Notes under the pieces: generated by a model | What the model was told of the DNA's origin: nothing | Seen by the model: the letters and a program-made list of their open reading frames with translations, nothing else | Databases searched by the model: none | DNA from: a virus | Lineage: Duplodnaviria > Heunggongvirae > Uroviricota > Caudoviricetes | Length of the DNA stretch: 12,568 nt | IMG/VR virus record: IMGVR_UViG_2740892115_000002 | Reading direction: 5' to 3' (one strand) | Made by a program: the position numbers and the translations under genes | In this document: in pieces, positions 1-12,568 of the stretch | How the letters are laid out: each line of letters opens with the position of its first letter | Numbering within the stretch: the first letter of the stretch is position 1

Positions 1-1461
1 ATGAAAAAATTACTGCGTCTTTTTTTCCCGCTCTCGCTGCGGGTACGTTTTCTGTTAGCAACGGCAGCAGTAGTATTGGTGCTTTCGCTTGCCTACGGAA
101 TGGTTGCGCTGATCGGTTATAGCGTCAGTTTCGATAAAACCACGTTTCGGCTGTTACGTGGCGAGAGCAATCTGTTCTATACCCTTGCGAAGTGGGAAAA
201 CAATAAGTTGCATGTCGAGTTACCCGAAAATATCGACAAGCAAAGCCCCACGATGACACTAATTTATGATGAGAACGGGCAGCTTTTATGGGCGCAACGT
301 GACGTGCCCTGGCTGATGAAGATGATCCAGCCCGACTGGCTAAAATCGAACGGTTTTCATGAAATTGAAGCGGATGTTAACGATACCAGCCTCTTGCTGA
401 GTGGAGATCATTCGATACAGCAACAGTTGCAGGAAGTGCGGGAAGATGATGACGACGCGGAGATGACCCACTCGGTGGCGGTAAACGTCTACCCGGCAAC
501 ATCGCGGATGCCAAAGTTAACCATTGTGGTGGTGGATACCATTCCGGTGGAGCTAAAAAGTTCCTATATGGTCTGGAGCTGGTTTATCTATGTGCTCTCA
601 GCCAATCTGCTGTTAGTGATCCCGCTGCTGTGGGTCGCCGCCTGGTGGAGTTTACGCCCCATCGAAGCCCTGGCAAAAGAAGTCCGCGAACTGGAAGAAC
701 ATAACCGCGAATTGCTCAATCCAGCCACAACGCGGGAACTGACTAGTCTGGTACGAAACCTGAACCGACTGTTAAAAAGTGAACGCGAACGTTACGACAA
801 ATATCGTACGACGCTCACCGACCTGACCCATAGTCTGAAAACGCCACTGGCGGTGCTGCAAAGTACGCTGCGTTCTCTGCGTAGTGAGAAGATGAGCGTC
901 AGTGATGCTGAGCCGGTAATGCTGGAGCAAATCAGCCGCATTTCACAGCAAATTGGCTACTACCTGCATCGTGCCAGTATGCGCGGCGGGACATTGCTTA
1001 GCCGCGAGCTGCATCCGGTCGCCCCACTGCTGGACAATCTCACCTCGGCGCTGAACAAAGTGTATCAACGCAAAGGGGTCAATATCTCTCTCGATATTTC
1101 GCCAGAGATCAGCTTTGTCGGTGAGCAGAACGATTTTGTCGAGGTGATGGGCAACGTGCTGGATAATGCCTGTAAATATTGCCTCGAGTTTGTCGAAATA
1201 TCTGCAAGGCAAACAGACGAGCATCTCTATATTGTGGTCGAGGATGATGGCCCCGGTATTCCATTAAGCAAGCGAGAGGTCATTTTCGACCGTGGTCAAC
1301 GGGTTGATACTTTACGCCCTGGGCAAGGTGTAGGGCTGGCGGTAGCCCGCGAAATCACCGAGCAATATGAGGGTAAAATCGTCGCCGGAGAGAGCATGCT
1401 GGGCGGTGCGCGGATGGAGGTGATTTTTGGTCGCCAGCATTCTGCACCGAAAGATGAATAA
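1..1461 (+). CDS. phoQ: Sensor histidine kinase PhoQ (PhoP/PhoQ two-component system), complete 486 aa
   Basis: Full-length ORF starting at base 1. Translation matches enterobacterial PhoQ as I recall it: N-terminal TM helix, acidic periplasmic patch EDDDDAE, second TM, HAMP, H-box ([10 protein letters not shown]), ATPase motifs ([20 protein letters not shown]), C-terminus HSAPKDE. Confidence 0.96.
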
Positions 1462-1910
1462 ATATGTCCTTTTATCACTATATCAAGACAAACCATTGAT
1501 TTAATTAAATAATCTGCACTGCAAAAAGTGCCAAAAATCGCAAATTGACTACACCATTAACTACACCGTTCGGTGCACCGTATGAAACAACGTGGAACAA
1601 ATAGACACAAGAAATATACAGGCGGATCATCTTTCCAGGGGGAAGCGCACCAATTCATGAGGGGCGTTAATGTCTATATGGGGATCCCCACCTACCGGAA
1701 TTTTTTTCCGGTTAAACGTTAATCAGGCTGGTGGGCTTTACCTGTTCGGTAGGTGTTATGATTATCGTAATACCTTTCCCCCAATGGGGTAAAAGCATCA
1801 ACCGTAACGAAAGTCGTTATGGTTGCCTTGATGGTCTGCGTGGTCATTATGACCATTCAGAATTTGAAGGGTGATGTTTCCGATCTCCTCAAATTGAGGT
1901 TGCCGGAAAT

Positions 1911-2130
1911 ATCAACGGGTTAGGCCAGAGTGCAAATTTGCACTCTGGAACAATTCCAACCAGTTATCGGCATCAGGCCCACCAGCCAACGCAATTTTGA
2001 GCTTTGCTTTAATCTCAGTGAGTTACCGCGCCAATTTCCGCAGTCTGTGTAAATTGGGAAGAATCAACGGGTTAGGCTGGTTTCCCCGATGTTCGCCGCT
2101 GGCGAATTTCGAAAATATCAACCAGTTACC
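1911..2130 (+). repeat. Four direct copies of a 12-14 bp motif ATCAAC(G/C)(G/A)GTTA
   Basis: Copies at 1911-1925 (atcaacgggttaggc), 1955-1968 (tccaaccagttatc), 2063-2077 (atcaacgggttaggc), 2117-2130 (atcaaccagttacc). All in the same orientation in ORF-free DNA; the last overlaps the stop of the 93-aa ORF. Confidence 0.6.
1925..1948. promoter_or_regulatory. 24-bp perfect palindrome ccagagtgcaaa/tttgcactctgg; candidate dimeric protein binding site or recombination core
   Basis: First half ccagagtgcaaa is the exact reverse complement of second half tttgcactctgg. Directly abuts the first ATCAACGGGTTAGG repeat. No flanking T-run on either strand, so not a terminator. Confidence 0.5.
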
Positions 2131-2407
2131 GCCGTAACCGCTCCGGCTTCTTCCAGTGGTACGTAATTTTTGCTTTTTCCCTGTACGTCTGCACGCGGCG
2201 ACGGTAGGCCAGCATTTCAAGAACGCGGATCCGTATGTCGCGCATATCAACATCATTAAGCTGGATACCATCACGGCGCATCACCTCAGCAACAACACGC
2301 ACATAATTTTCAGCGGTCACGCTGTCCGGCTGTGTGGCCTGTTCGTCATGCTGCTGGCTGATTCCGGTAACGCGGCGGATTAATCCCAGTAGTTCGGCTT
2401 CTGTCAT
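2126..2407 (-). CDS. Hypothetical 93-aa protein adjacent to the cos region
   Basis: ORF with GGGGG Shine-Dalgarno-like sequence 4 nt upstream of the ATG. Basic C-terminus. The opposite-strand ORF 2156..2383 looks like a low-complexity antisense artifact. No family recognised. Confidence 0.5.
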   Translation of the reverse strand: MTEAELLGLIRRVTGISQQHDEQATQPDSVTAENYVRVVAEVMRRDGIQLNDVDMRDIRIRVLEMLAYRRRVQTYREKAKITYHWKKPERLRR

Positions 2408-2440: not shown

Positions 2441-2670
2441 CGGGTCCTTCCTGGAATTATGGCCCGTTACGGGGCGGCGACCTCGCGGTTTTTCGCTATT
2501 TATGAGATTTTTTGAGGGGGTGGTTGTTGTTTAATTGTTTGGTATATCTAATTGATAAGTAAGGTAAAAATAAAATAAATACAACAACCTTACGATGTAT
2601 TTTGATGTCATTAATGTGAAAAAATTCAATGATATCAAATGGTTTTGTAAAAACACATGGTTGTTGTATC
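2441..2670 (+). other. cos-like site A (rightward orientation): lambda-type cosN plus GGTTGTTGT repeat set
   Basis: 2462-2487 gcccgttacg|gggcggcgacct|cgcg matches the lambda cosN and 12-nt cohesive end GGGCGGCGACCT as I recall it (core 2472-2483), followed by TTTTTCGCTATTTATGA as in the lambda left end. Inward repeats GGTTGTTGT at 2522-2530 and 2659-2667, inverted ACAACAACC at 2581-2589, with AT-rich spacers. Confidence 0.6.
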
Positions 2671-2844
2671 GCGTATTTGATGGCGTAACAGAAAGTGATT
2701 TTTAACTTTACCGCTCTGTAACTACGGATTATTCCATGCTGGCACGGAGAACGGCTACGGCATGACGCCACCCAGCCTATACAGAACAGTAAAGCCGATA
2801 AATTGTTAATCACGCGCAGCAATGCGTGTGATTTTTGCACACTT

Positions 2845-3038
2845 CCGGTTAACGGGTACGATGTCCGGTTTTAGTGTCTGTTTTTTGCGCATGTCCGGTT
2901 CATAGAAAGCATGTTTTTATATTTTTCATATGGTTAACTTGCAGAGAAACCGGACATGGATCCCGGAAAATTTTCATAAATAGTGAAAACGCGCGAGGTC
3001 GCCGCCCCGTAACGGGCCATAATTCCAGGAAGGACCCG
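2845..3038 (-). other. cos-like site B (leftward orientation): lambda-type cosN plus ATGTCCGGTT repeat set
   Basis: Read on the minus strand from 3038: cosN (core 2996-3007), then CGTTTTCACTATTTATGAAAATTTTCCGG, which is nearly identical to lambda sequence just inside cosN from memory. Then ATGTCCGGTT-type repeats at 2948-2957, 2891-2900 and 2861-2870 in a direct/inverted/inverted pattern, spaced roughly 50, 105 and 135 bp from cosN, reminiscent of lambda R3/R2/R1 with an AT-rich stretch between. Confidence 0.65.
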
Positions 3039-3067: not shown

Positions 3068-3481
3068 TCAGATGGTTTTCAGTATGCGATCGATGTCGCC
3101 GTCATCGCCCTGGTTTCTGCCATCGTATGCCATGCCAGCTGATACGGCTTGCGGGCTGTGCATGTCCATAAAGTTTTCAAAGGCTGCGGTAAGCTCTGGT
3201 GCAACCTTTGGGCGCTCCTGCTCTATGGTCATGTTCAGGATTTCACGAGCATTATCGACGCTAATACATGGCACGTTTGCCATTGCACGTAACAGCGGCT
3301 GATAGTCTTTATGCTCATGAAGCGCCATAATCGCATCAGCGCGCGGCTTGTCCTGCTCTTCCAGTTTGTTTAGTTGATATACGGCCTCATAGGTTGATAA
3401 ACCTCTGTCAGCCATTGCCCGCGCTTCGGCTTTAAATTTACTCGCCAGCGGTAGCGTCATGATGCTTTCATTCGTTGCCAT
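3068..3481 (-). CDS. Hypothetical 137-aa protein, last gene of the capsid operon
   Basis: ORF 12 nt downstream of the gpD-like gene on the same strand, followed by the terminator. No family recognised. Confidence 0.55.
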   Translation of the reverse strand: MATNESIMTLPLASKFKAEARAMADRGLSTYEAVYQLNKLEEQDKPRADAIMALHEHKDYQPLLRAMANVPCISVDNAREILNMTIEQERPKVAPELTAAFENFMDMHSPQAVSAGMAYDGRNQGDDGDIDRILKTI

Positions 3482-3493
3482 CGTTCCCCCTGC

Positions 3494-3829
3494 TTATCGG
3501 GCCAGCGGCTGAACGGATACGCCGGAACCCGCAAAGGCGGCGCATTTTTTCGCATCGGTGTCGACGCTCTCAGGCCAGTTAACGGCGGCAATATTGAATA
3601 TCCCCGTCTTGTAACACTGTGCTGATTTCTGCTTTGACGTGTCCACAGGGTACGAGGTCAGATAAACAGCCTTGCCAGATTCCTTACCATCCCACGGCTT
3701 AAACTCGCCATTGTCCGCCAGCATCAGCGGGGTAAATTCCTGAATAACGCCAGCATCAGCGGCAAAATGTACCAGCGTCGTGGCGACCTGCTGACTGCCT
3801 GCAAATAACTCAATGTATGGAGTGTCCAT
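3494..3829 (-). CDS. Head decoration protein, lambda gpD-like (111 aa)
   Basis: Size and motifs resemble lambda gpD from memory: TPLMLAD, WDG, YKTGIF...WPE, KKCAAFAGSGVSV versus lambda TPLMLD, WDG, YKSGTF...WPE, KKRTAFAGTAISIV. Confidence 0.75.
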   Translation of the reverse strand: MDTPYIELFAGSQQVATTLVHFAADAGVIQEFTPLMLADNGEFKPWDGKESGKAVYLTSYPVDTSKQKSAQCYKTGIFNIAAVNWPESVDTDAKKCAAFAGSGVSVQPLAR

Positions 3830-5517: not shown

Positions 5518-5940
5518 TTAAAACGGTATGTTATCCCCGTACGGATCATCATTCCCCGCCTGTTGTTTTGCCCTGTTCAGCGCGTCAGTAGCCTGGCCCT
5601 GTTGACCTTTTTTGCCGCCCAGTCGCGCCGTTCGCGCACTGATTACACTGTCTGCGATAACCTGCCAGCCCTGCCGCGTTTCTCCGTTCTGCCCAGTCCA
5701 CTGGCTGATCTGCATGTTACCCGCCACGCTCAGGAGTTCACCCTTGCGGTGCCTTTCCAGTGCTTCGGCCTGTCTGCCAAATGCCAGGACGGATAACCAC
5801 ATCGTCGCCGTTCCGTCATCTGCCTGGCTGCACGGAAGGGGGACCGCCATACGCGCCAGCGTCATCGGTGTGCCCTTGCTGGTCTGTTTTACCTGCGGGT
5901 CGTCCACCAGCCGCCCGTAAGCTGCTATCTGTGCTGTCAT
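5518..5940 (-). CDS. ssb: Single-stranded DNA-binding protein (SSB-like, 140 aa)
   Basis: OB-fold-like N-terminal region with SSB-like blocks (LSVLAFGRQAEALERHRKGELLSVAGNMQISQWTGQNGETRQGWQV), Gly/Gln-rich linker, and acidic C-terminal tail ending DDPYGDNIPF, comparable to the DDDIPF tail of E. coli SSB. Confidence 0.8.
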   Translation of the reverse strand: MTAQIAAYGRLVDDPQVKQTSKGTPMTLARMAVPLPCSQADDGTATMWLSVLAFGRQAEALERHRKGELLSVAGNMQISQWTGQNGETRQGWQVIADSVISARTARLGGKKGQQGQATDALNRAKQQAGNDDPYGDNIPF

Positions 5941-6503: not shown

Positions 6504-8258
6504 TTATAAAAACGCGTCGCACTCGTCTGTTGTTATTGCGTTAGTCTGCGTTACCCCCTTAACTTTCCGCGTAATATATTCATGTCCGTAAACTTTTGCG
6601 GCAGGCTTCATAGCCTTTCCAAAGTCATTTACGTTTAGCGGTTTGCTCCTGCCTGCGTATGCCATAAACGCCAGATAGACGCGGTAAAGGCTGTTCCTGG
6701 TCGTGTACTTCACTGAATCGCCACCGCCCCCCATCATCAGGCCGCGCGCTTCCTCCAGAAAATTCAGGAACTGGCAAAACTCAATAACCGGATCCGTCTG
6801 TTGCTTTATTGCCAGTGCTTCATCACCGTCACGCTGTTCCAGTAGTAAAGCCCGTGCCTTCTCAGGGTCGGTAAAGTTCGCCAGCAATCGGCGGATAATG
6901 ACAGGGATTTCAGCCGCGATCTTTTCCGGTAGCTCCCTGTCTTTTTCGGCCTCACTGACGATATTGTCGAAACGGAAAATCACGCGACGACGTGCCACAC
7001 CTCCGGCCCGTTCGGTGAATATCATCGGGTTATTGTTGGTCGCCAGCACCACCGCCCTGATTACAGCCGTGAAACGCTTTTCGTATTTCGGGTTAATTTC
7101 CACGGGGTCACCGCCCGTGATTTTCTTGATGCCCGTTCCTTCGCCTGTATATTTCGGCTGGTCAGCCAGGACGATAAGACGACTCCCGACAACCTGCGCA
7201 CGTCCACCAGCATCATCAAGCGATGTCATTTCAGCGCTTACCGTGTTCTGTTTCCCTGCCAGAAGGCTGGCTATGTGCGTGAATGTACTTTTACCGCTCC
7301 CGCCGTCTCCGGTGGCCTCAATAAACATCTGCCAGTCGTACCGGTTCGCCATAATCATGTACAGCGCGGCACATATACGCATCATCTTGCGCGGGTCTTT
7401 TCCGGCTGCGTGCTCAAGCCATTTATGAAAGTTTGGCGCGTTATCGCGGATGTTCTCCCCTGGTGCTGGTGGCGTGTACTCAATGCCGTTGTGCGTGGTG
7501 ATCCAGTTCTCCGGCGTGTGCGGGGAAAATCCCCCCGTTTTCAGGTCAAGCGCACCATTGGCGAACGGCAGCAAATCGCCGGACGGCTCGCCCATTGGTT
7601 CGGCAATAACTTTTAACGCTTCCACGGCGTTATTGATTACGCGCTTGCTGAAAGTGGCCCTGTGCTCTGAATAGATCGCCACCATTTCGCGGCTAAGTTC
7701 CATTGTGCTGACCGGACACCATACCCCGCCGCGCCATACGTGAACGATTTCACTTTCAGGATGTACGCAAACGCCATCAAAGCGATCGGCAAGCAGCTGC
7801 GCGCGCTCACTGTCCGCCATCTGCGAAAGTTGCGCCTTTTGCTTTACCGGAAGCTCAATGACCAGACCATCAGAAAGATTCTGGCGCTCACGGGCCAGAT
7901 ATTCGCGCCAGTTCTCCACCTTCTGACCGTGCATACCATCAGGGTAAAAATTTGCATCCTGTACGCCTGCCGCCGCCAGCTTCTGGCCAATCGCCTTTAT
8001 CATTACTGGCGCAAGATATCCGGCCCTGAATATGCGCACGGATTTTCTGCCTTCCGGCACAATTTGCAGCTTATCCAGTTCTGATAACTGCTGCTCCCCA
8101 AGCCACACAGGAGGCTCATTATCTCCGGCCATACGCGCATCATGTTCCTGCCATTGTTTCGCGTGTGCCCAGGCATCACTACCCGCAAAAATAATGACTT
8201 CTGTTCCTTTGTGTTTTATGCCGCGTGACTGCTGTTTTACGTTCGGTGCCAGTTTCAT
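6504..8258 (-). CDS. Replication initiator, P4 alpha / D5-family primase-helicase-like (584 aa)
   Basis: Walker A motif GDGGSGKST and downstream D5/P4-type helicase-like blocks. Size and position (upstream of iterons) fit a pri-rep gene. AGGGG Shine-Dalgarno-like sequence; start overlaps the upstream ORF stop (ATGA). Confidence 0.8.
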   Translation of the reverse strand: MKLAPNVKQQSRGIKHKGTEVIIFAGSDAWAHAKQWQEHDARMAGDNEPPVWLGEQQLSELDKLQIVPEGRKSVRIFRAGYLAPVMIKAIGQKLAAAGVQDANFYPDGMHGQKVENWREYLARERQNLSDGLVIELPVKQKAQLSQMADSERAQLLADRFDGVCVHPESEIVHVWRGGVWCPVSTMELSREMVAIYSEHRATFSKRVINNAVEALKVIAEPMGEPSGDLLPFANGALDLKTGGFSPHTPENWITTHNGIEYTPPAPGENIRDNAPNFHKWLEHAAGKDPRKMMRICAALYMIMANRYDWQMFIEATGDGGSGKSTFTHIASLLAGKQNTVSAEMTSLDDAGGRAQVVGSRLIVLADQPKYTGEGTGIKKITGGDPVEINPKYEKRFTAVIRAVVLATNNNPMIFTERAGGVARRRVIFRFDNIVSEAEKDRELPEKIAAEIPVIIRRLLANFTDPEKARALLLEQRDGDEALAIKQQTDPVIEFCQFLNFLEEARGLMMGGGGDSVKYTTRNSLYRVYLAFMAYAGRSKPLNVNDFGKAMKPAAKVYGHEYITRKVKGVTQTNAITTDECDAFL

Positions 8259-9229: not shown

Positions 9230-9449
9230 GTACCCCTCCGCATTTTTTTTCGTTAGAAATAAGCGTTCTTCTTTCCTGTTCATCGCTCAGGAATACGCAG
9301 ACCTCACCGCTAAGGCGTTTAAGTAAGCCGATGATTGCCCCTGATTCGCTGTCGGTCATCATGCCAGGGTAATCCTCTGCCAGTGCGCAAATAACTTCGA
9401 TTTGGTGGGCGCGTTCTGCTGCCTGTTGTAGTGTGATTTCCTGGCTCAT
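9219..9449 (-). CDS. Hypothetical 76-aa protein
   Basis: ORF whose start overlaps the stop of the upstream frame (ATGA at 9446-9449), part of the tightly coupled operon. Confidence 0.5.
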   Translation of the reverse strand: MSQEITLQQAAERAHQIEVICALAEDYPGMMTDSESGAIIGLLKRLSGEVCVFLSDEQERRTLISNEKKCGGVHVQ

Positions 9450-10732
9450 AAGCCTACCCCCTGACGAATACGGGCAGCAAATACCATCACGCAGCCAGCC
9501 GGAGATTGCTGGCGTGCTTCCTGTTCGCTGGTGGCCTCAATGGTAATCACGCGCGGTTGTGCCGTGCTCAGGGCGATAAAACGCCAGATGTATTTATTCA
9601 GGTTGTGCGAGTCCCGCCCTTGCGGGTGTGTGGTATGATTTAACATAGCTACCTCGATACTTTCGCTATCGTTGGTGGTTAGAAGCCCTGCGAGTGGTAA
9701 CGACACTTGCGGGGCTTTGCATTTATGCACCTTGATAATCTCAAGGTGTGGCCCACTATATGCTTTAGGTGTGGCCCACGTCAAGGGTTTTATTTGTGCT
9801 TTTTCTGTGTATACTGTCCCCCACCAATCCAACAGAGGAATAGAAATGGCAACGGGTACAACAAACGCAAAATCACAAGCTCTAAAGGCTCGTGTACCAC
9901 ACGAAATAGTAAACGCCATGGAATCAGTGAAAGAATCAGGCGAAAGCACATCACAATTCATCATTGCGTCAATGCAAGGCGAGATCAAACGCCGCCAGCG
10001 CCGCAAGGCCAAAGAGCAGGAGTAACCATCACCAGCGCCGTGGTGTGAGTAACTACGGCGCATTGCTATGCAGGACAACACAATGACCGATAAAGAATTG
10101 ACCAAAACATTATCACCGGCACGGAAAAGACGGCGCAGAAAGATAGAGCATGAATCAGAAAGATTCGCGCCATGTGCTTTTGCCCTTGAGCAATTCCTTA
10201 AAGAGTACAGGGAAAAGCGCTCATTGCAGGTATGGCAACGAACTGAACCTGACTGATTGCATTGCCCACCAGCCGCAAATGTGGCATTGTTGGCAATGCT
10301 CATGCGTTGGGGATAACGTGTAGCTTGTGTCGAGGGGCCACCGTAGCGGGTGGCCTTTGTTTTGCCCGTTATTCGGCAATTGTGGCGCTTCTCCACATGG
10401 TTGATATAATCCCACTGCTCAGATTCATTTTTTGCGCAGTAGGTTAATTGTTCACAAAGGCGCTCCGGCAACGGGGCGCTTTTTGTTTTTATTAGTTTGT
10501 AGAAACCTGACTCAGAGATAATGCTCATATTCTGATTGCCGTCAGGGGTGTAAGTTAAATTTACTCCCTTTTTATCATCAAACATCTGCAACGCTCTGGC
10601 GTTAACAATATTGGTTTCACTCCCGCCAGTAAGGCCGGAAATAACCGGAATAATTTCGGCAAAATTTTGCAGATTCTGTTTTTCAGGACGAACGAAGCCC
10701 CGCCCTTGTTCGGGAGAATATCCAGTATTCAT
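9446..10732 (-). CDS. Uncertain 428-aa open frame; likely a real N-terminal domain (about 115 aa from 10732) and/or a short C-terminal gene (possible start 9643, 66 aa), with the middle unlikely to be coding
   Basis: The N-terminal part has normal protein-like composition (NLTYTPDGNQNMSIISESGFYKLI, faintly like phage antirepressor N-domains). The central part is Cys/Arg/Ser-rich and antisense to two plus-strand small ORFs with good Shine-Dalgarno-like sequences. No in-frame stop until 9446. Confidence 0.3.
   Translation of the reverse strand: MNTGYSPEQGRGFVRPEKQNLQNFAEIIPVISGLTGGSETNIVNARALQMFDDKKGVNLTYTPDGNQNMSIISESGFYKLIKTKSAPLPERLCEQLTYCAKNESEQWDYINHVEKRHNCRITGKTKATRYGGPSTQATRYPQRMSIANNATFAAGGQCNQSGSVRCHTCNERFSLYSLRNCSRAKAHGANLSDSCSIFLRRLFRAGDNVLVNSLSVIVLSCIAMRRSYSHHGAGDGYSCSLALRRWRRLISPCIDAMMNCDVLSPDSFTDSMAFTISCGTRAFRACDFAFVVPVAISIPLLDWWGTVYTEKAQIKPLTWATPKAYSGPHLEIIKVHKCKAPQVSLPLAGLLTTNDSESIEVAMLNHTTHPQGRDSHNLNKYIWRFIALSTAQPRVITIEATSEQEARQQSPAGCVMVFAARIRQGVGL
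9744..9779. promoter_or_regulatory. Divergent control region with two direct 13-bp repeats AGGTGTGGCCCAC (9744-9756, 9767-9779)
   Basis: Repeats 23 bp apart in the intergenic region between the minus-strand small-ORF operon and the plus-strand RHH-like gene. A TATACT -10-like hexamer at 9811-9816 lies upstream of the plus-strand ATG at 9846. Confidence 0.5.
9846..10025 (+). CDS. Small ribbon-helix-helix-like DNA-binding protein (59 aa), candidate island repressor or regulator
   Basis: AGAGGAA Shine-Dalgarno-like sequence 5 nt upstream of the ATG. Sequence pattern of a beta-strand followed by two helices (KSQALKARVPHEIVNAMESVKE...STSQFIIASMQ) and a basic tail RRQRRKAKEQE. Family assignment is by pattern only. 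Confidence 0.5.
   Translation: MATGTTNAKSQALKARVPHEIVNAMESVKESGESTSQFIIASMQGEIKRRQRRKAKEQE
10083..10256 (+). CDS. Possible small basic protein (57 aa from the ATG at 10083; the ORF is open from 10068)
   Basis: AGGA 7 nt upstream of the ATG at 10083. Contains an RKRRRRK stretch. Weak support. Confidence 0.3.
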   Translation: MTDKELTKTLSPARKRRRRKIEHESERFAPCAFALEQFLKEYREKRSLQVWQRTEPD

Positions 10733-10784
10733 GGTTAGATCTCTGTATTAGTGGATGGGTGGCGGCTGTGTGCCGCCAGCCTGA

Positions 10785-10973
10785 TTAGTGAACTGCCTCG
10801 CAGCTGTCCTTCCATGCCAGAACTTCGGATAAAGACCAGCCAACGGAACGACCGCCCAGCTTACGCCGTGATGGGAATTGTCCGGCTTTTTCCAGGCGGT
10901 ACCGACATGAGCGGCTCAGGCCTGTAAGTTGCTGACATTCTTTTTCACGTATAAAGCGATCTGTGCTTAACAC
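10785..10973 (-). CDS. alpA: AlpA-family (phage Xis/MerR-like) transcriptional regulator, 62 aa
   Basis: Matches the AlpA pattern as recalled: LTGLSRSCRYRLEKAGQFPSRRKLGGRSVGWSLSEVLAW versus AlpA TG..R.TIY......FP....LG.KSVGW...EI..W. Position next to the integrase is typical. Confidence 0.75.
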   Translation of the reverse strand: MLSTDRFIREKECQQLTGLSRSCRYRLEKAGQFPSRRKLGGRSVGWSLSEVLAWKDSCEAVH

Positions 10974-11254
10974 AATTCCCCCTTTGTTGTTTCTTAAAGA
11001 GTCATTGGGTGGATTATTGGGTTGGGTTGTGTCGGATTGTGTCAGGGTGTTTGTGGAATGGCAAACACTGGCGGCGGTCGTTTTACAGAAGCAGGGGAAA
11101 TGAGAATAAAAACTCTTTTAATTCATTATGATGCAAAGGCATAAAATTTTACTTTTACGCCTTTTTTACATATTTTTAAGAGTGATTCGCCAGTGTATAA
11201 AAAAACAGTACACCTATAAAAATCAAATGGTTATTACGATGGCTGATTTTTAAC

Positions 11255-11313
11255 CCGTTGTTCCATTTTGTTCCTTGTTGTTCGTCGTTGTGTCTCGTTG
11301 TTTCACGTTGTCC
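11255..11313. repeat. Six tandem copies of a CGTTGT-containing unit at about 10-bp periodicity, directly 3' of the integrase gene
   Basis: ccgttgttcc / ttttgttcc / ttgttgttcg / tcgttgtgtc / tcgttgtttc / acgttgtcc, with units starting near 11256, 11267, 11277, 11286, 11296 and 11306. A related GT-rich set (ggttgtgtc, gattgtgtc) lies at about 11025-11055 near the alpA 5' region. Confidence 0.6.
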
Positions 11314-11338
11314 GCATCCTGAAAAATCGCAAAAAAAA

Positions 11339-12568
11339 TTATATTTCTCTGGCTATTGGCAATGTGGTTACGTTTTCATGTGTTCCCGCCAGTATCCCTA
11401 ACCGCTCCGTCCACATATCCAGCGCGTCACGTTTCGCATCCAGATAACGGGAATGGTTATAGACTCGTTGCATCCCTGGCATCTGATGACCTGTAAGCTG
11501 CTCCACGACGTGAGGATCCACGCCTAAATCGTTCAGCATCGTTGTAAAGGTGCGCCGGATGTCATGCAGTGACCAGTGAGGGTGTTTTAGCCTCCTGTGC
11601 GCTAATCTGCCGTACTGCGACACGCTTGTTTCCTGTTTCACTTCCCCCAGCAATAAGCCCGTGTGCCTGTTCTGCTCCACCAGCTGCGTGACGAACGGCA
11701 GTATTGCTTCCGGTATGGGCCGGAATATTGCCACCTTCGTTTTGCTGTGTTCTTTCGGCACGGTCCAGAGCATTTCGGTAAAATCCCACTCGCTGATCTC
11801 CGATAACCTCAGTTCTACCGTCCGGCATCCGAAAACAATCAGGAGGCGGATTAGTGCGACGTAGTAAGGGGAAAATATTTTTTTGTCCAGTGCCTGCAAT
11901 AATTCGCCAAGTTCTTTGGTGCTTAAGACGCGCTCGCTTATATCCGGTTTTTTCCCAACGTCCGCCACACTCATATCATCAAGAACGTTGCTGATTGCAT
12001 AGCGCCGCCTCCGGCAGAACTTAAGCGCCTGTTTGCACGTCTGTAGCAAGAATCCGGCAGTAACAGGCGTTCGCTTTGCCACCTGGTCAAAACAGGCCAG
12101 CCAGTGCCGTAGCTCGCATTTATCCAGCGGCATAGCACCAATGTGCTGTATTACGTGATTATTAAGGCGCTTTTTCAGGGCGGCATAATCCACGCGGTTT
12201 TCCTTTGCGTACGACTCAAGCCAGTAGGTGAGCGCATCGCCAACCGTTACCGGCTTTAACGCTTCCTGTACGGTGTAATTCATTTCATGACGTGGATTTT
12301 TCCCCTCTGCCAGCCATGCGCGACACTGGGCGGCTTTTTCCCTGGCTGATTTCAGGCTCAGATCAGGATAATTTCCCAGCTTAATGCGTTCCGGTGGTGC
12401 CCCCCTTCCCGTTCCGGCCCTGTAAGTGAAATACCAGGTTAAAAGGCCACTGGTTGAATGCCTGACGCTCAGGTTTCCACCGTCATTAAGAAAGGCTGTT
12501 TTTTGGGCGGGTGTGCCGTTGATTTTCCTCAGCTGTGTATCGCTCAGTTTGTTAAGTGCTCTGCTCAT
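11339..12568 (-). CDS. int: Tyrosine recombinase, P4-type integrase (409 aa; start codon at the window edge)
   Basis: N-terminal arm-binding-like region typical of P4-family integrases (DGGNLSV...W.F.YR......R..LG.YP..SLKSAREKA...AWLAEGKNP). C-terminal catalytic region includes HDIRRTF and HxxR...Y (RVYNHSRY). The start lies on the last base of the window, so an upstream in-frame start cannot be excluded. Confidence 0.9.
   Translation of the reverse strand: MSRALNKLSDTQLRKINGTPAQKTAFLNDGGNLSVRHSTSGLLTWYFTYRAGTGRGAPPERIKLGNYPDLSLKSAREKAAQCRAWLAEGKNPRHEMNYTVQEALKPVTVGDALTYWLESYAKENRVDYAALKKRLNNHVIQHIGAMPLDKCELRHWLACFDQVAKRTPVTAGFLLQTCKQALKFCRRRRYAISNVLDDMSVADVGKKPDISERVLSTKELGELLQALDKKIFSPYYVALIRLLIVFGCRTVELRLSEISEWDFTEMLWTVPKEHSKTKVAIFRPIPEAILPFVTQLVEQNRHTGLLLGEVKQETSVSQYGRLAHRRLKHPHWSLHDIRRTFTTMLNDLGVDPHVVEQLTGHQMPGMQRVYNHSRYLDAKRDALDMWTERLGILAGTHENVTTLPIAREI

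Follow-up and report, generated by a model that had tools for sequence, protein, structure and literature searches.

The noncoding stretch from position 1462 to 2125 of a 12,568-nucleotide viral record in IMG/VR (IMGVR_UViG_2740892115_000002, called the window here) lies between phoQ and orf93, the last gene of an integrated element. It is the integrase-distal end of that element and has three layers: an att arm beside phoQ, a conserved block with a Chi octamer, and a variable array beside orf93 in which A/T-centered palindromes alternate with boxes matching the consensus of integration host factor (IHF). From its sequence, the element is identified as a phage satellite of the Gram-negative phage-inducible chromosomal island (PICI) type, with AlpA and a P4-type integrase, at the 3' end of phoQ, because of its gene content, its two cosN 12-mers, and an island of the same gene layout occupying the same phoQ-roxA site in O157:H7. 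The joint explanation of the stretch as an integrase-distal PICI end made of att arm, Chi block, and IHF-box/palindrome array is the one we favor, with moderate confidence. The original prediction, made from the letters of the window, had described an island end free of open reading frames (ORFs), with four direct ATCAAC..GTTA repeats and a 24-bp palindrome, and had linked these to possible integrase or excisionase binding, a core-type site or operator, or a structured RNA. The feature exists and is, for the most part, of an ordinary kind, and those specific assignments were largely wrong.

phoQ occupies positions 1 to 1461 on the plus strand, island DNA runs from 1470 on, and all island genes are on the minus strand. 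K-12-like genomes (locus L002) share only the 3' end of phoQ and diverge after position 1469 into roxA; the empty site reads AAATATGCCC and then continues with roxA-side sequence, and most of 5343 matching genomes match over the phoQ end only. This comparison with an island-free site, which the original prediction had proposed as a check, places the junction at 1469/1470 and identifies the stretch as island DNA rather than ordinary intergenic DNA. The core, AAATATGTCC (1460 to 1469), overlaps the phoQ stop codon (1459 to 1461) and is assigned as such because the identical 10-mer is found at both junctions. The second copy is at positions 5841 to 5850 of L151, which covers the right end of the island in Escherichia coli HM670 and is identical to the window over 9400 to 12568. 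The island thus has the direct repeat at both junctions and the empty site in other strains that are expected of a PICI, and it extends from 1470 to ~12749 (~11.3 kb).

The first layer, from 1460 to ~1610, is organized as a standard attP arm, to judge from its sequence. Tandem 12-bp repeats (ATTGACTACACC and ATTAACTACACC, referred to as the ACTACACC repeats) are located at 1544 to 1567 on the plus strand, 75 to 100 bp into the island. The tandem recurs in direct orientation in the integrase-proximal arm (L151 5693 to 5716, and also in L001), and homology between the arms extends ~35 bases beyond it, to about 1600. In its position, a tandem (A/G)GTTATACG is found in islands at the yejO site and GTGTATTGC in prophage-embedded islands. 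Arm-type sites are expected in both arms and should covary with integrase and site, a pattern seen for the ACTACACC tandem and not for the ATCAAC..GTTA repeats. The tandem is therefore the best candidate, being present in both arms and covarying with the integration site, and likely represents the arm-type integrase sites. An IHF-consensus site, AATCAATGGTTTG, lies between the core and these repeats on the minus strand (1489 to 1501) with an A/T-rich flank (ATTTAATTAAAT, 1499 to 1510); by eye, equally placed consensus matches are present in L001, L003, L009, L030b, and L010, and the sequence in L006 deviates at one position. Between the integrase stop codon and alpA, at 11221 to 11233 (plus strand), AATCAAATGGTTA is a further exact match to the IHF consensus.

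The arm resembles lambda- and P4-type attP arms in having a core at both junctions, tandem arm repeats 75 to 150 bp from the core in both arms, an IHF-consensus site between core and arm sites, and an integrase with an N-terminal arm-binding domain. By analogy with lambda and P4 attP, the integrase would bridge arm and core across IHF bends. The general expectation of integrase binding at this island end was thus borne out, in that a recombination arm is present and the tyrosine integrase carries an arm-binding domain. The ACTACACC tandem, the IHF-consensus site at 1489 to 1501, and two Chi octamers (described below) were not part of the original prediction. The likeness is limited to 1460 to ~1610; the ATCAAC..GTTA repeats and the 24-bp palindrome are 440 to 660 bp away from the core, and their distribution does not follow the integrase. 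Two tandem PICIs at the yejO site, 11 kb apart on one contig (L019 and L020), have both att arms back to back at their junction (L020 3283 to 4083), with tandem (A/G)GTTATACG on either side of the core.

The array occupies positions 1861 to 2128 on the plus strand. Its direct repeat ATCAACSRGTTA, i.e., ATCAAC(G/C)(G/A)GTTA, occurs in exactly three copies, all on the plus strand (1911 to 1922, 2063 to 2074, and 2117 to 2128). The four same-orientation repeats described originally thus comprise three exact copies on one strand and a presumed fourth that is a degenerate box, TCCAACCAGTTA, at 1955 to 1966; a fifth copy, CTCAGTGAGTTA at 2014 to 2025, is also degenerate, and both are on the plus strand. 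When at most one mismatch is allowed, the window contains five copies versus 0.18 expected, and none of 200 shuffles reached five. The IHF consensus, reported by Craig and Nash 1984 and Goodrich 1990, is WATCARNNNNTTR (WATCAR-N4-TTR). With one additional 5' base, exact repeats 1 and 2 become box 1 (TATCAACGGGTTA, 1910 to 1922) and box 2 (AATCAACGGGTTA, 2062 to 2074), and box 3 (TATCAACCAGTTA, 2116 to 2128) ends in a TTA complementary to the stop codon of orf93; in minus-strand direction, box 3 comes after a weak terminator-like hairpin (2140 to 2123). All three plus-strand boxes match WATCARNNNNTTR perfectly, and each has an A-rich tract on its 5' side. The window has six consensus matches versus 0.98 expected, four of them within 1489 to 2128.

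Comparison across related islands was based on 44 distinct versions of the interval from the Chi block to the orf93 stop codon, taken from E. coli genomes, assemblies with orf93 variants, and IMG/VR contigs. Roughly 1,200 E. coli genomes match positions 1880 to 2130. An IMG/VR scan with a 16-mer from the Chi block returned 120 loci, of which 69 had no orf93 to the right, the longer ones inspected being mostly chance matches in phage genes; a contig scan with the single orf93 protein gave one locus, and the diversity came from the other sources. The arrays contain zero to six boxes, with 52 distinct copies on one strand versus 1 on the other, and the boxes are irregularly spaced, with peaks at 48 and 54 bp. 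The strict IHF consensus is matched by 37 of the 52 copies. Mismatches number ~3 per position at ATCA and TTA and ~15 per position at R and N4, and position 4 is only A or G. The 5' flank has A at -3 in 45 of 52 copies and is T rich from -11 to -9. The boxes thus combine the features of IHF sites, namely, the consensus, an A/T-rich 5' flank, and constraint on the consensus positions, in copies that are related by descent. This pattern of constraint is what IHF recognition would predict, and we infer that the boxes bind IHF. The array regions of L003, L008, and L010, and also L093, contain a further module of four direct GTGAC repeats in exact 10-bp phasing (GTGACggagaGTGACaaccaGTGACacaccGTGAC in gene orientation), which resembles iterons or recombination-directionality-factor sites and is absent from the window.

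The palindromes form the other half of the array. The perfect 24-bp palindrome CCAGAGTGCAAATTTGCACTCTGG was found as described, at 1925 to 1948, beginning 2 nt past the first repeat, and is one of several unit palindromes; the others are at 1887 to 1899, 1989 to 2002 (degenerate), 2031 to 2057 (imperfect), and 2092 to 2106. Two further palindromes named originally are real, with coordinates that were off by 1 to 3 nt (GGTCATTATGACC is at 1842 to 1854 and CCTCAAATTGAGG at 1887 to 1899). The region yields 14 perfect stem/loop solutions, corresponding to 8 distinct palindromes with stems of at least 6 nt, versus 2.2 ± 1.9 in Markov resamples, and other windows of the same size contain 0 to 6 perfect palindromes. 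Across the 44 arrays there are 78 distinct palindromes, many with a CAA(A/T)TTG-type center, and 36 of the 78 have loops of 0 or 1 nt. Outside this island, the 24-bp palindrome is perfect in only one variant, in which paired G>T and C>A changes keep it symmetric (L007 and L091); elsewhere it is degenerate (three variants), is joined to a different unit by a crossover at its center (L006), or is replaced, and the whole interval is a patchwork of segments duplicated and exchanged between islands. We interpret the palindromes at the level of DNA, as parts of repeating units ~45 to 55 bp long, rather than as hairpins in RNA, because their loops are so often of 0 or 1 nt, G.T and A.C mismatches show no asymmetry, and the two strands fold equally well. 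Nor do we take them for core sites or for a conserved operator. Each unit would consist of an A/T-centered DNA palindrome and one IHF-consensus box in fixed orientation, and the array would be an architectural, recombination-prone spacer bound by IHF, whose units are gained, lost, and swapped between islands.

Between arm and array is a conserved block of ~200 bp (1664 to 1861), with a mean column identity of 78% over eight distinct sequences (alignment A1). It is kept at 78 to 99% identity in islands at phoQ, clpS, and tqsA, partly at yejO, and in lambdoid prophage late genes and is therefore conserved regardless of the integrase. The block contains a palindrome (TGGGGATCCCCA, 1679 to 1690), the 9-bp inverted repeat noted originally, now confirmed at 1689 to 1697 and 1747 to 1755 around a hairpin (ACCGGAAtttttTTCCGGT, 1694 to 1712), a second hairpin (TAACGAnnnTCGTTA, 1805 to 1819), and a palindrome at its array end (TGGTCATtATGACCA, 1841 to 1855). 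Its invariant center reads ACCGGAAtttttTTCCGGTTA-N4-TTAATCAGGCTGGTGG on the plus strand, and the Chi octamer GCTGGTGG (1727 to 1734, plus strand) falls within the invariant stretch TTAATCAGGCTGGTGG. A second Chi octamer at 1979 to 1986 (minus strand) is, flanks included, the inverted counterpart of the Chi at 1727 in a perfect 11-nt repeat. In each of the 26 distinct island ends examined, at least one Chi has the orientation of that at 1727. In the window, this Chi is separated from cosN(+) by 745 bp and from cosN(-) by 1.27 kb. RecBCD recognizes Chi when reading it from its 3' side, and the Chi at 1727 thus appears to be oriented for RecBCD moving from the cos/orf93 side toward att.

Chi is also more frequent in the island than any other 8-mer, occurring 11 times in ~11 kb (1727+, 1979-, 4017-, 5024+, 5904-, 7204-, 7465+, 8324+, 9527+, 10266-, and 11677-) versus 0.43 expected from shuffles and 0.49 from octamers of the same composition, and phoQ contains no Chi. 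The mean over 40 distinct related islands is 1.06 Chi/kb versus 0.05/kb in their flanks, and the L001 island has 0.96 Chi/kb inside versus 0.12 outside. No gam-like RecBCD inhibitor was present among the family matches obtained for the island genes. Because no such inhibitor was detected and Chi occurs about once per kb, the Chi block may limit degradation from a cohesive end: RecBCD entering from a cos-generated DNA end, at a distance of ~0.75 to 1.3 kb, would be halted there and would then begin to load RecA. Lambdoid phages rich in Chi and devoid of a RecBCD inhibitor (Bobay et al. 2013, summarized in the review PMC8791490) are similar in that Chi is overrepresented (~1/kb) in a temperate mobile element with no gam-like gene detected. 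They differ in that the element here is a satellite and that one Chi lies in the most conserved noncoding block, near the cos-proximal end. No literature linking Chi sites with PICIs was found in the library searched.

Several observations weigh against these assignments. The IHF consensus is short and the copies share descent, so that box counts are not independent. A C at +5 and a G at +8, within the free N4, are fairly conserved, which IHF does not explain. The strict consensus is missed by 15 of the 52 copies, a consensus match is absent from 7 of 33 IMG/VR arrays, and even with three mismatches allowed, no box was found in 6 of the 44 pooled arrays; because some arrays carry no box, no essential role can be claimed for the array. 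The island Chi sites are split five to six between the strands, and an enzyme coming from the nearer cos end would first encounter the Chi at 1979 (minus strand), which has the inactive orientation. Furthermore, conservation around the Chi at 1727 exceeds the octamer and includes CTGATTAA and the adjacent hairpin, so that something other than Chi may be conserved.

The main rival explanation is that the array is neutral recombination debris. Its units would then be functionless scars, stacked partial duplicates of the orf93 stop region and the downstream hairpin left by recurrent exchange, homologous or illegitimate, between co-resident PICIs, and they would match the IHF consensus because a single ancestral copy did. 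Much of the anatomy is consistent with this: the region is mosaic, with segments duplicated and shuffled between islands; copy number varies from zero to six with irregular spacing; box 3 overlaps the orf93 stop codon, and internal units share (G)GCGGTAACTGGTTGAT with the gene end; clear gene-end remnants are present in L007 and L010; the L006 crossover falls within the palindrome center; and the array is missing from some islands. However, orf93 homology reaches only 4 to 9 nt upstream of the stop codon in most units, and as fossils of the orf93 3' end the units were rejected for this limit, which holds save in L007 and L010. In addition, differences between copies avoid ATCA and TTA about fivefold, which is unexpected under neutral decay, and the 52-to-1 strand bias extends across diverged copies. 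Neutral debris is thus a possible but unlikely account of the array.

It is decidedly improbable that the boxes or palindromes serve as operators or directionality sites for some protein besides IHF, such as AlpA acting as an excisionase, the orf93 product, or a helper-phage regulator. The island does encode AlpA, orf93 adjoins the array in most islands examined and its product has a basic, conserved C terminus (W-KKPERLRR), each box holds a short dyad (AAC-NN-GTT) together with the conserved C and G beyond the IHF requirement, and most palindromes are perfect through the center, as operators of dimeric proteins often are. Nevertheless, the boxes are asymmetric outside AAC/GTT, the palindromes vary between islands and are often degenerate, and boxes are missing from L024, whose att arm is the same and which has an orf93 homologue. 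A DNA-binding role for orf93 was unsupported by any search: the protein has no Pfam match, its best PDB sequence match is weak (QmcA, E = 0.17), and its AlphaFold model is small, all-helical, and of moderate confidence (pLDDT 70) and, when compared with PDB by Foldseek, gave a best E value of 1.2 and no match to a DNA-binding fold.

A role of the array as RNA, be it a 3' untranslated region of the late operon with hairpins acting as terminators or stabilizers or a structured noncoding RNA, is very improbable. The segment from 1860 to 2130 folds better than shuffled sequences, a weak terminator-like hairpin with a U-rich tail is located at the orf93 stop codon, and in islands without the array this position is taken by a canonical terminator (GACGTggccaACGTC and then ATTTTTT). 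Set against this, the two strands fold equally well (z = -4.4 and -3.8), Rfam gave no match at E ≤ 1, the loops of 0 or 1 nt in 36 of the 78 palindromes are too short for RNA hairpins, mismatches in stems are balanced (26 G.T versus 22 A.C), and most hairpins lack a neighboring U-tract, whichever strand is read. No T-run adjoins the 24-bp palindrome on either strand, and only the weak minus-strand hairpin at 2140 to 2123 passed the terminator scan. The structured RNA suggested originally finds no support in the Rfam result, the equal folding of the strands, and the balance of stem mismatches.

The original assignment of the repeats as arm-type integrase sites and of the 24-bp palindrome as a core-type site had in its favor that the repeats are direct, lie at an island end in one orientation, and accompany an integrase with an arm-binding domain. 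Boxes are, however, common to islands at four integration sites (phoQ, clpS, yejO/narP, and tqsA), and prophage-embedded islands have none. An island at the same phoQ site (L024/L030), with near-identical att arm and Chi block, has zero boxes and the canonical terminator instead of the array. Absence of the repeats from related islands was the outcome named beforehand as refuting that assignment, and because a same-site island with a near-identical att arm has none, the repeats are very unlikely to be arm-type sites. No ATCAAC..GTTA repeat was found in the integrase-proximal arm (L151), whereas the ACTACACC tandem is present there. The array therefore appears to be dispensable for integration. 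With the core at 1460 to 1469 and the palindrome not conserved but degenerate, recombined, or replaced in other islands, the original assignment is extremely improbable.

The remainder of the island has the gene content of a Gram-negative PICI of the EcCI type: the integrase at one end, AlpA, a primase module, co-oriented genes, and a length in the 10- to 15-kb range. The integrase gene (11339 to 12568) encodes a P4-type tyrosine recombinase with PF13356, the N-terminal arm-binding domain, and PF00589; alpA (10785 to 10973) matches PF05930; and the D5-type primase gene (6504 to 8258) matches phrog_864 and D5_N, all on the minus strand. Further island genes encode SSB, lambda E-like and D-like capsid proteins, and a fragment of an Nu3-like scaffold. 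The exact 12-mer of the lambda cohesive end, GGGCGGCGACCT, occurs twice in inverted orientation (2472 to 2483, plus strand, and 2996 to 3007, minus strand), giving the lambda-like cos expected of PICI packaging. blastn searches of 1462 to 2125 and of orf93 against 50,697 phage records gave no match.

The cosN pair (2472 to 3007) brackets an A/T-rich segment of ~500 bp. Three CCGGACAT repeats beside cosN(-), at 2861 to 2868 and 2891 to 2898 (minus strand) and at 2950 to 2957 (plus strand), are arranged like the R sites of cosB. Membership of the 1462-to-2125 region in cos was ruled out, as cosN lies at 2472 and 2996 and the R-like repeats at 2861 to 2957, leaving the region outside, on the cosQ side. 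Passages of PMC6092414, PMC6739421, and PMC9026076 describe the packaging region of EcCICFT073-type PICIs, with cos1, cos2, and Rpp. The window shares with EcCICFT073 two lambda-type cosN sites, the overall layout, and a cosB-like cluster of three CCGGACAT by one cosN; it differs in that the array/Chi region is outside cos, on the cosQ side and 340 to 1000 bp from the nearer cosN. In the searched passages of these three papers, the orf93-to-att region is not mentioned.

The cos region also contains a 28-aa ORF (MRKKQTLKPDIVPVNRKCAKITRIAARD) that may be a truncated start of terS or rpp, and mechanical calling gave a 114-aa ORF with a GTG start at 2496 to 2840 (minus strand), in the A/T-rich segment between the cos sites. 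The latter had no PHROG, Pfam, or PDB match and may not be a real gene. Related islands have, in the same cos slot, a 180-aa Nu1-type TerS in either orientation or an ORF of 144 to 146 aa. Two inverted orf93 genes around one TerS are present in L030 (1 to 5942), with phoQ on one side and mdtJI/tqsA-side DNA on the other, which looks like a chromosomal inversion or assembly join through recombination of two PICIs at the inverted cos/TerS region. The prophage-embedded islands (L021 to L023 and L025 to L029) have orf93 and the Chi block, lack the IHF-box array, and sit inside lambdoid prophage late genes (S49 protease, D, E region); they match the helper-embedded PICIs described in PMC10111431.

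orf93 (2126 to 2407, minus strand; phrog_1561, function unknown) is the last gene in most related islands examined, whatever packaging module is upstream (lambda E/D capsid, P27-type TerS and TerL, or a ClpP-capsid fusion); it is truncated in L006 and missing in L007. The family is narrow (36 clusters at 50% identity among 1.8 billion representatives), and its basic C terminus is strictly conserved. In L007 (1434 to 2413), orf93 is gone save for its last ~10 nt, and the hairpin/Chi part of the conserved block is duplicated; the duplicated block is bracketed by copies of a 26-bp palindrome, CCCGATATGG(T/G)GATCCCCATATCGGG, whose form in the window is truncated (1672 to 1690).

The claim that the stretch is ORF free holds, as no ORF of at least 60 aa lies wholly within 1462 to 2125. 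Two mechanical ORFs cross its edges, one of 66 aa antisense to phoQ (1296 to 1496, minus strand) and one of 83 aa with a GTG start in another frame over orf93 (2023 to 2274, minus strand). A 140-aa ORF with a GTG start, a database call at 3271 to 3693 (minus strand) in L011, L013, and L015 to L019, runs antisense through the array, where the IHF boxes are read as repeated ...NINGLG... It is probably spurious rather than a conserved ORF, because L004 has it in interrupted form and the window, L005, and L007 align with just part of it. A 45-aa ORF at 1719 to 1856 (minus strand) was read as noncoding, its differences from L001 being, by eye, all nonsynonymous.

Each element of this island end is of a known class, and there is no new kind of system. 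The array resembles bacterial interspersed mosaic elements of the BIME-1 (RIP or RIB) type in E. coli, in which an IHF site is reportedly flanked by repetitive extragenic palindromic (REP) units at operon ends (Oppenheim 1993; Boccard and Prentki 1993). Both have short extragenic palindromes alternating with an IHF consensus just past a stop codon, a mosaic structure, and variable copy number. Unlike BIME-1, the array palindromes are A/T centered and heterogeneous, the boxes all point in one direction, and the arrays are at PICI ends rather than dispersed. No match to a consensus of the REP unit was found within three mismatches, and membership was ruled out for the lack of REP palindromes and the heterogeneity of those present. 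Integron attC arrays likewise have same-orientation, sequence-variable palindromes, and GTTAGGC in the box fits the GTTRRRY core, but the AAC and GTT half-sites here are 2 nt apart instead of flanking a palindrome, there are no cassettes and no IntI, and attC was rejected on this spacing and because the only integrase is P4 type with an arm-binding domain. A nut/boxB identity was ruled out on anatomy.

The arrangement of these elements, and the Chi density of the satellite family, appear to be undescribed; term searches of PICI papers gave no account of this island end. A bolder proposal is that the Chi block and the Chi-flanked array form a dedicated cis module of cos-packaged satellites, in which oriented Chi sites close to the cohesive end would turn host RecBCD from a destroyer of DNA to a recombinase loader and boxes and palindromes would promote the swapping of ends; phased IHF boxes and palindromes could shape the DNA so that co-resident satellites often exchange their packaging-proximal ends. 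We consider this quite unlikely, but if true, it would represent a built-in device for end protection and module swapping that is undescribed for PICIs. Bolder still, the heterogeneous perfect palindromes could be decoy operators that titrate helper-phage regulators.

Work on PICIs has centered mainly on proteins (AlpA, Rpp, and capsid-redirecting proteins), and their noncoding ends are not known to have been dissected. The analysis supplies concrete sequences that can be mutated in synthetic PICI engineering. If our assignments hold, the true att arm is separated from a family-wide Chi block and a fast-evolving IHF-box/palindrome array, and the mosaic nature of the orf93-to-att segment has an explanation. 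The E. coli average is ~1 Chi per 4.6 kb. At ~5 times that density, and again if these assignments hold, the satellite family may rely on RecBCD and RecA rather than blocking them.

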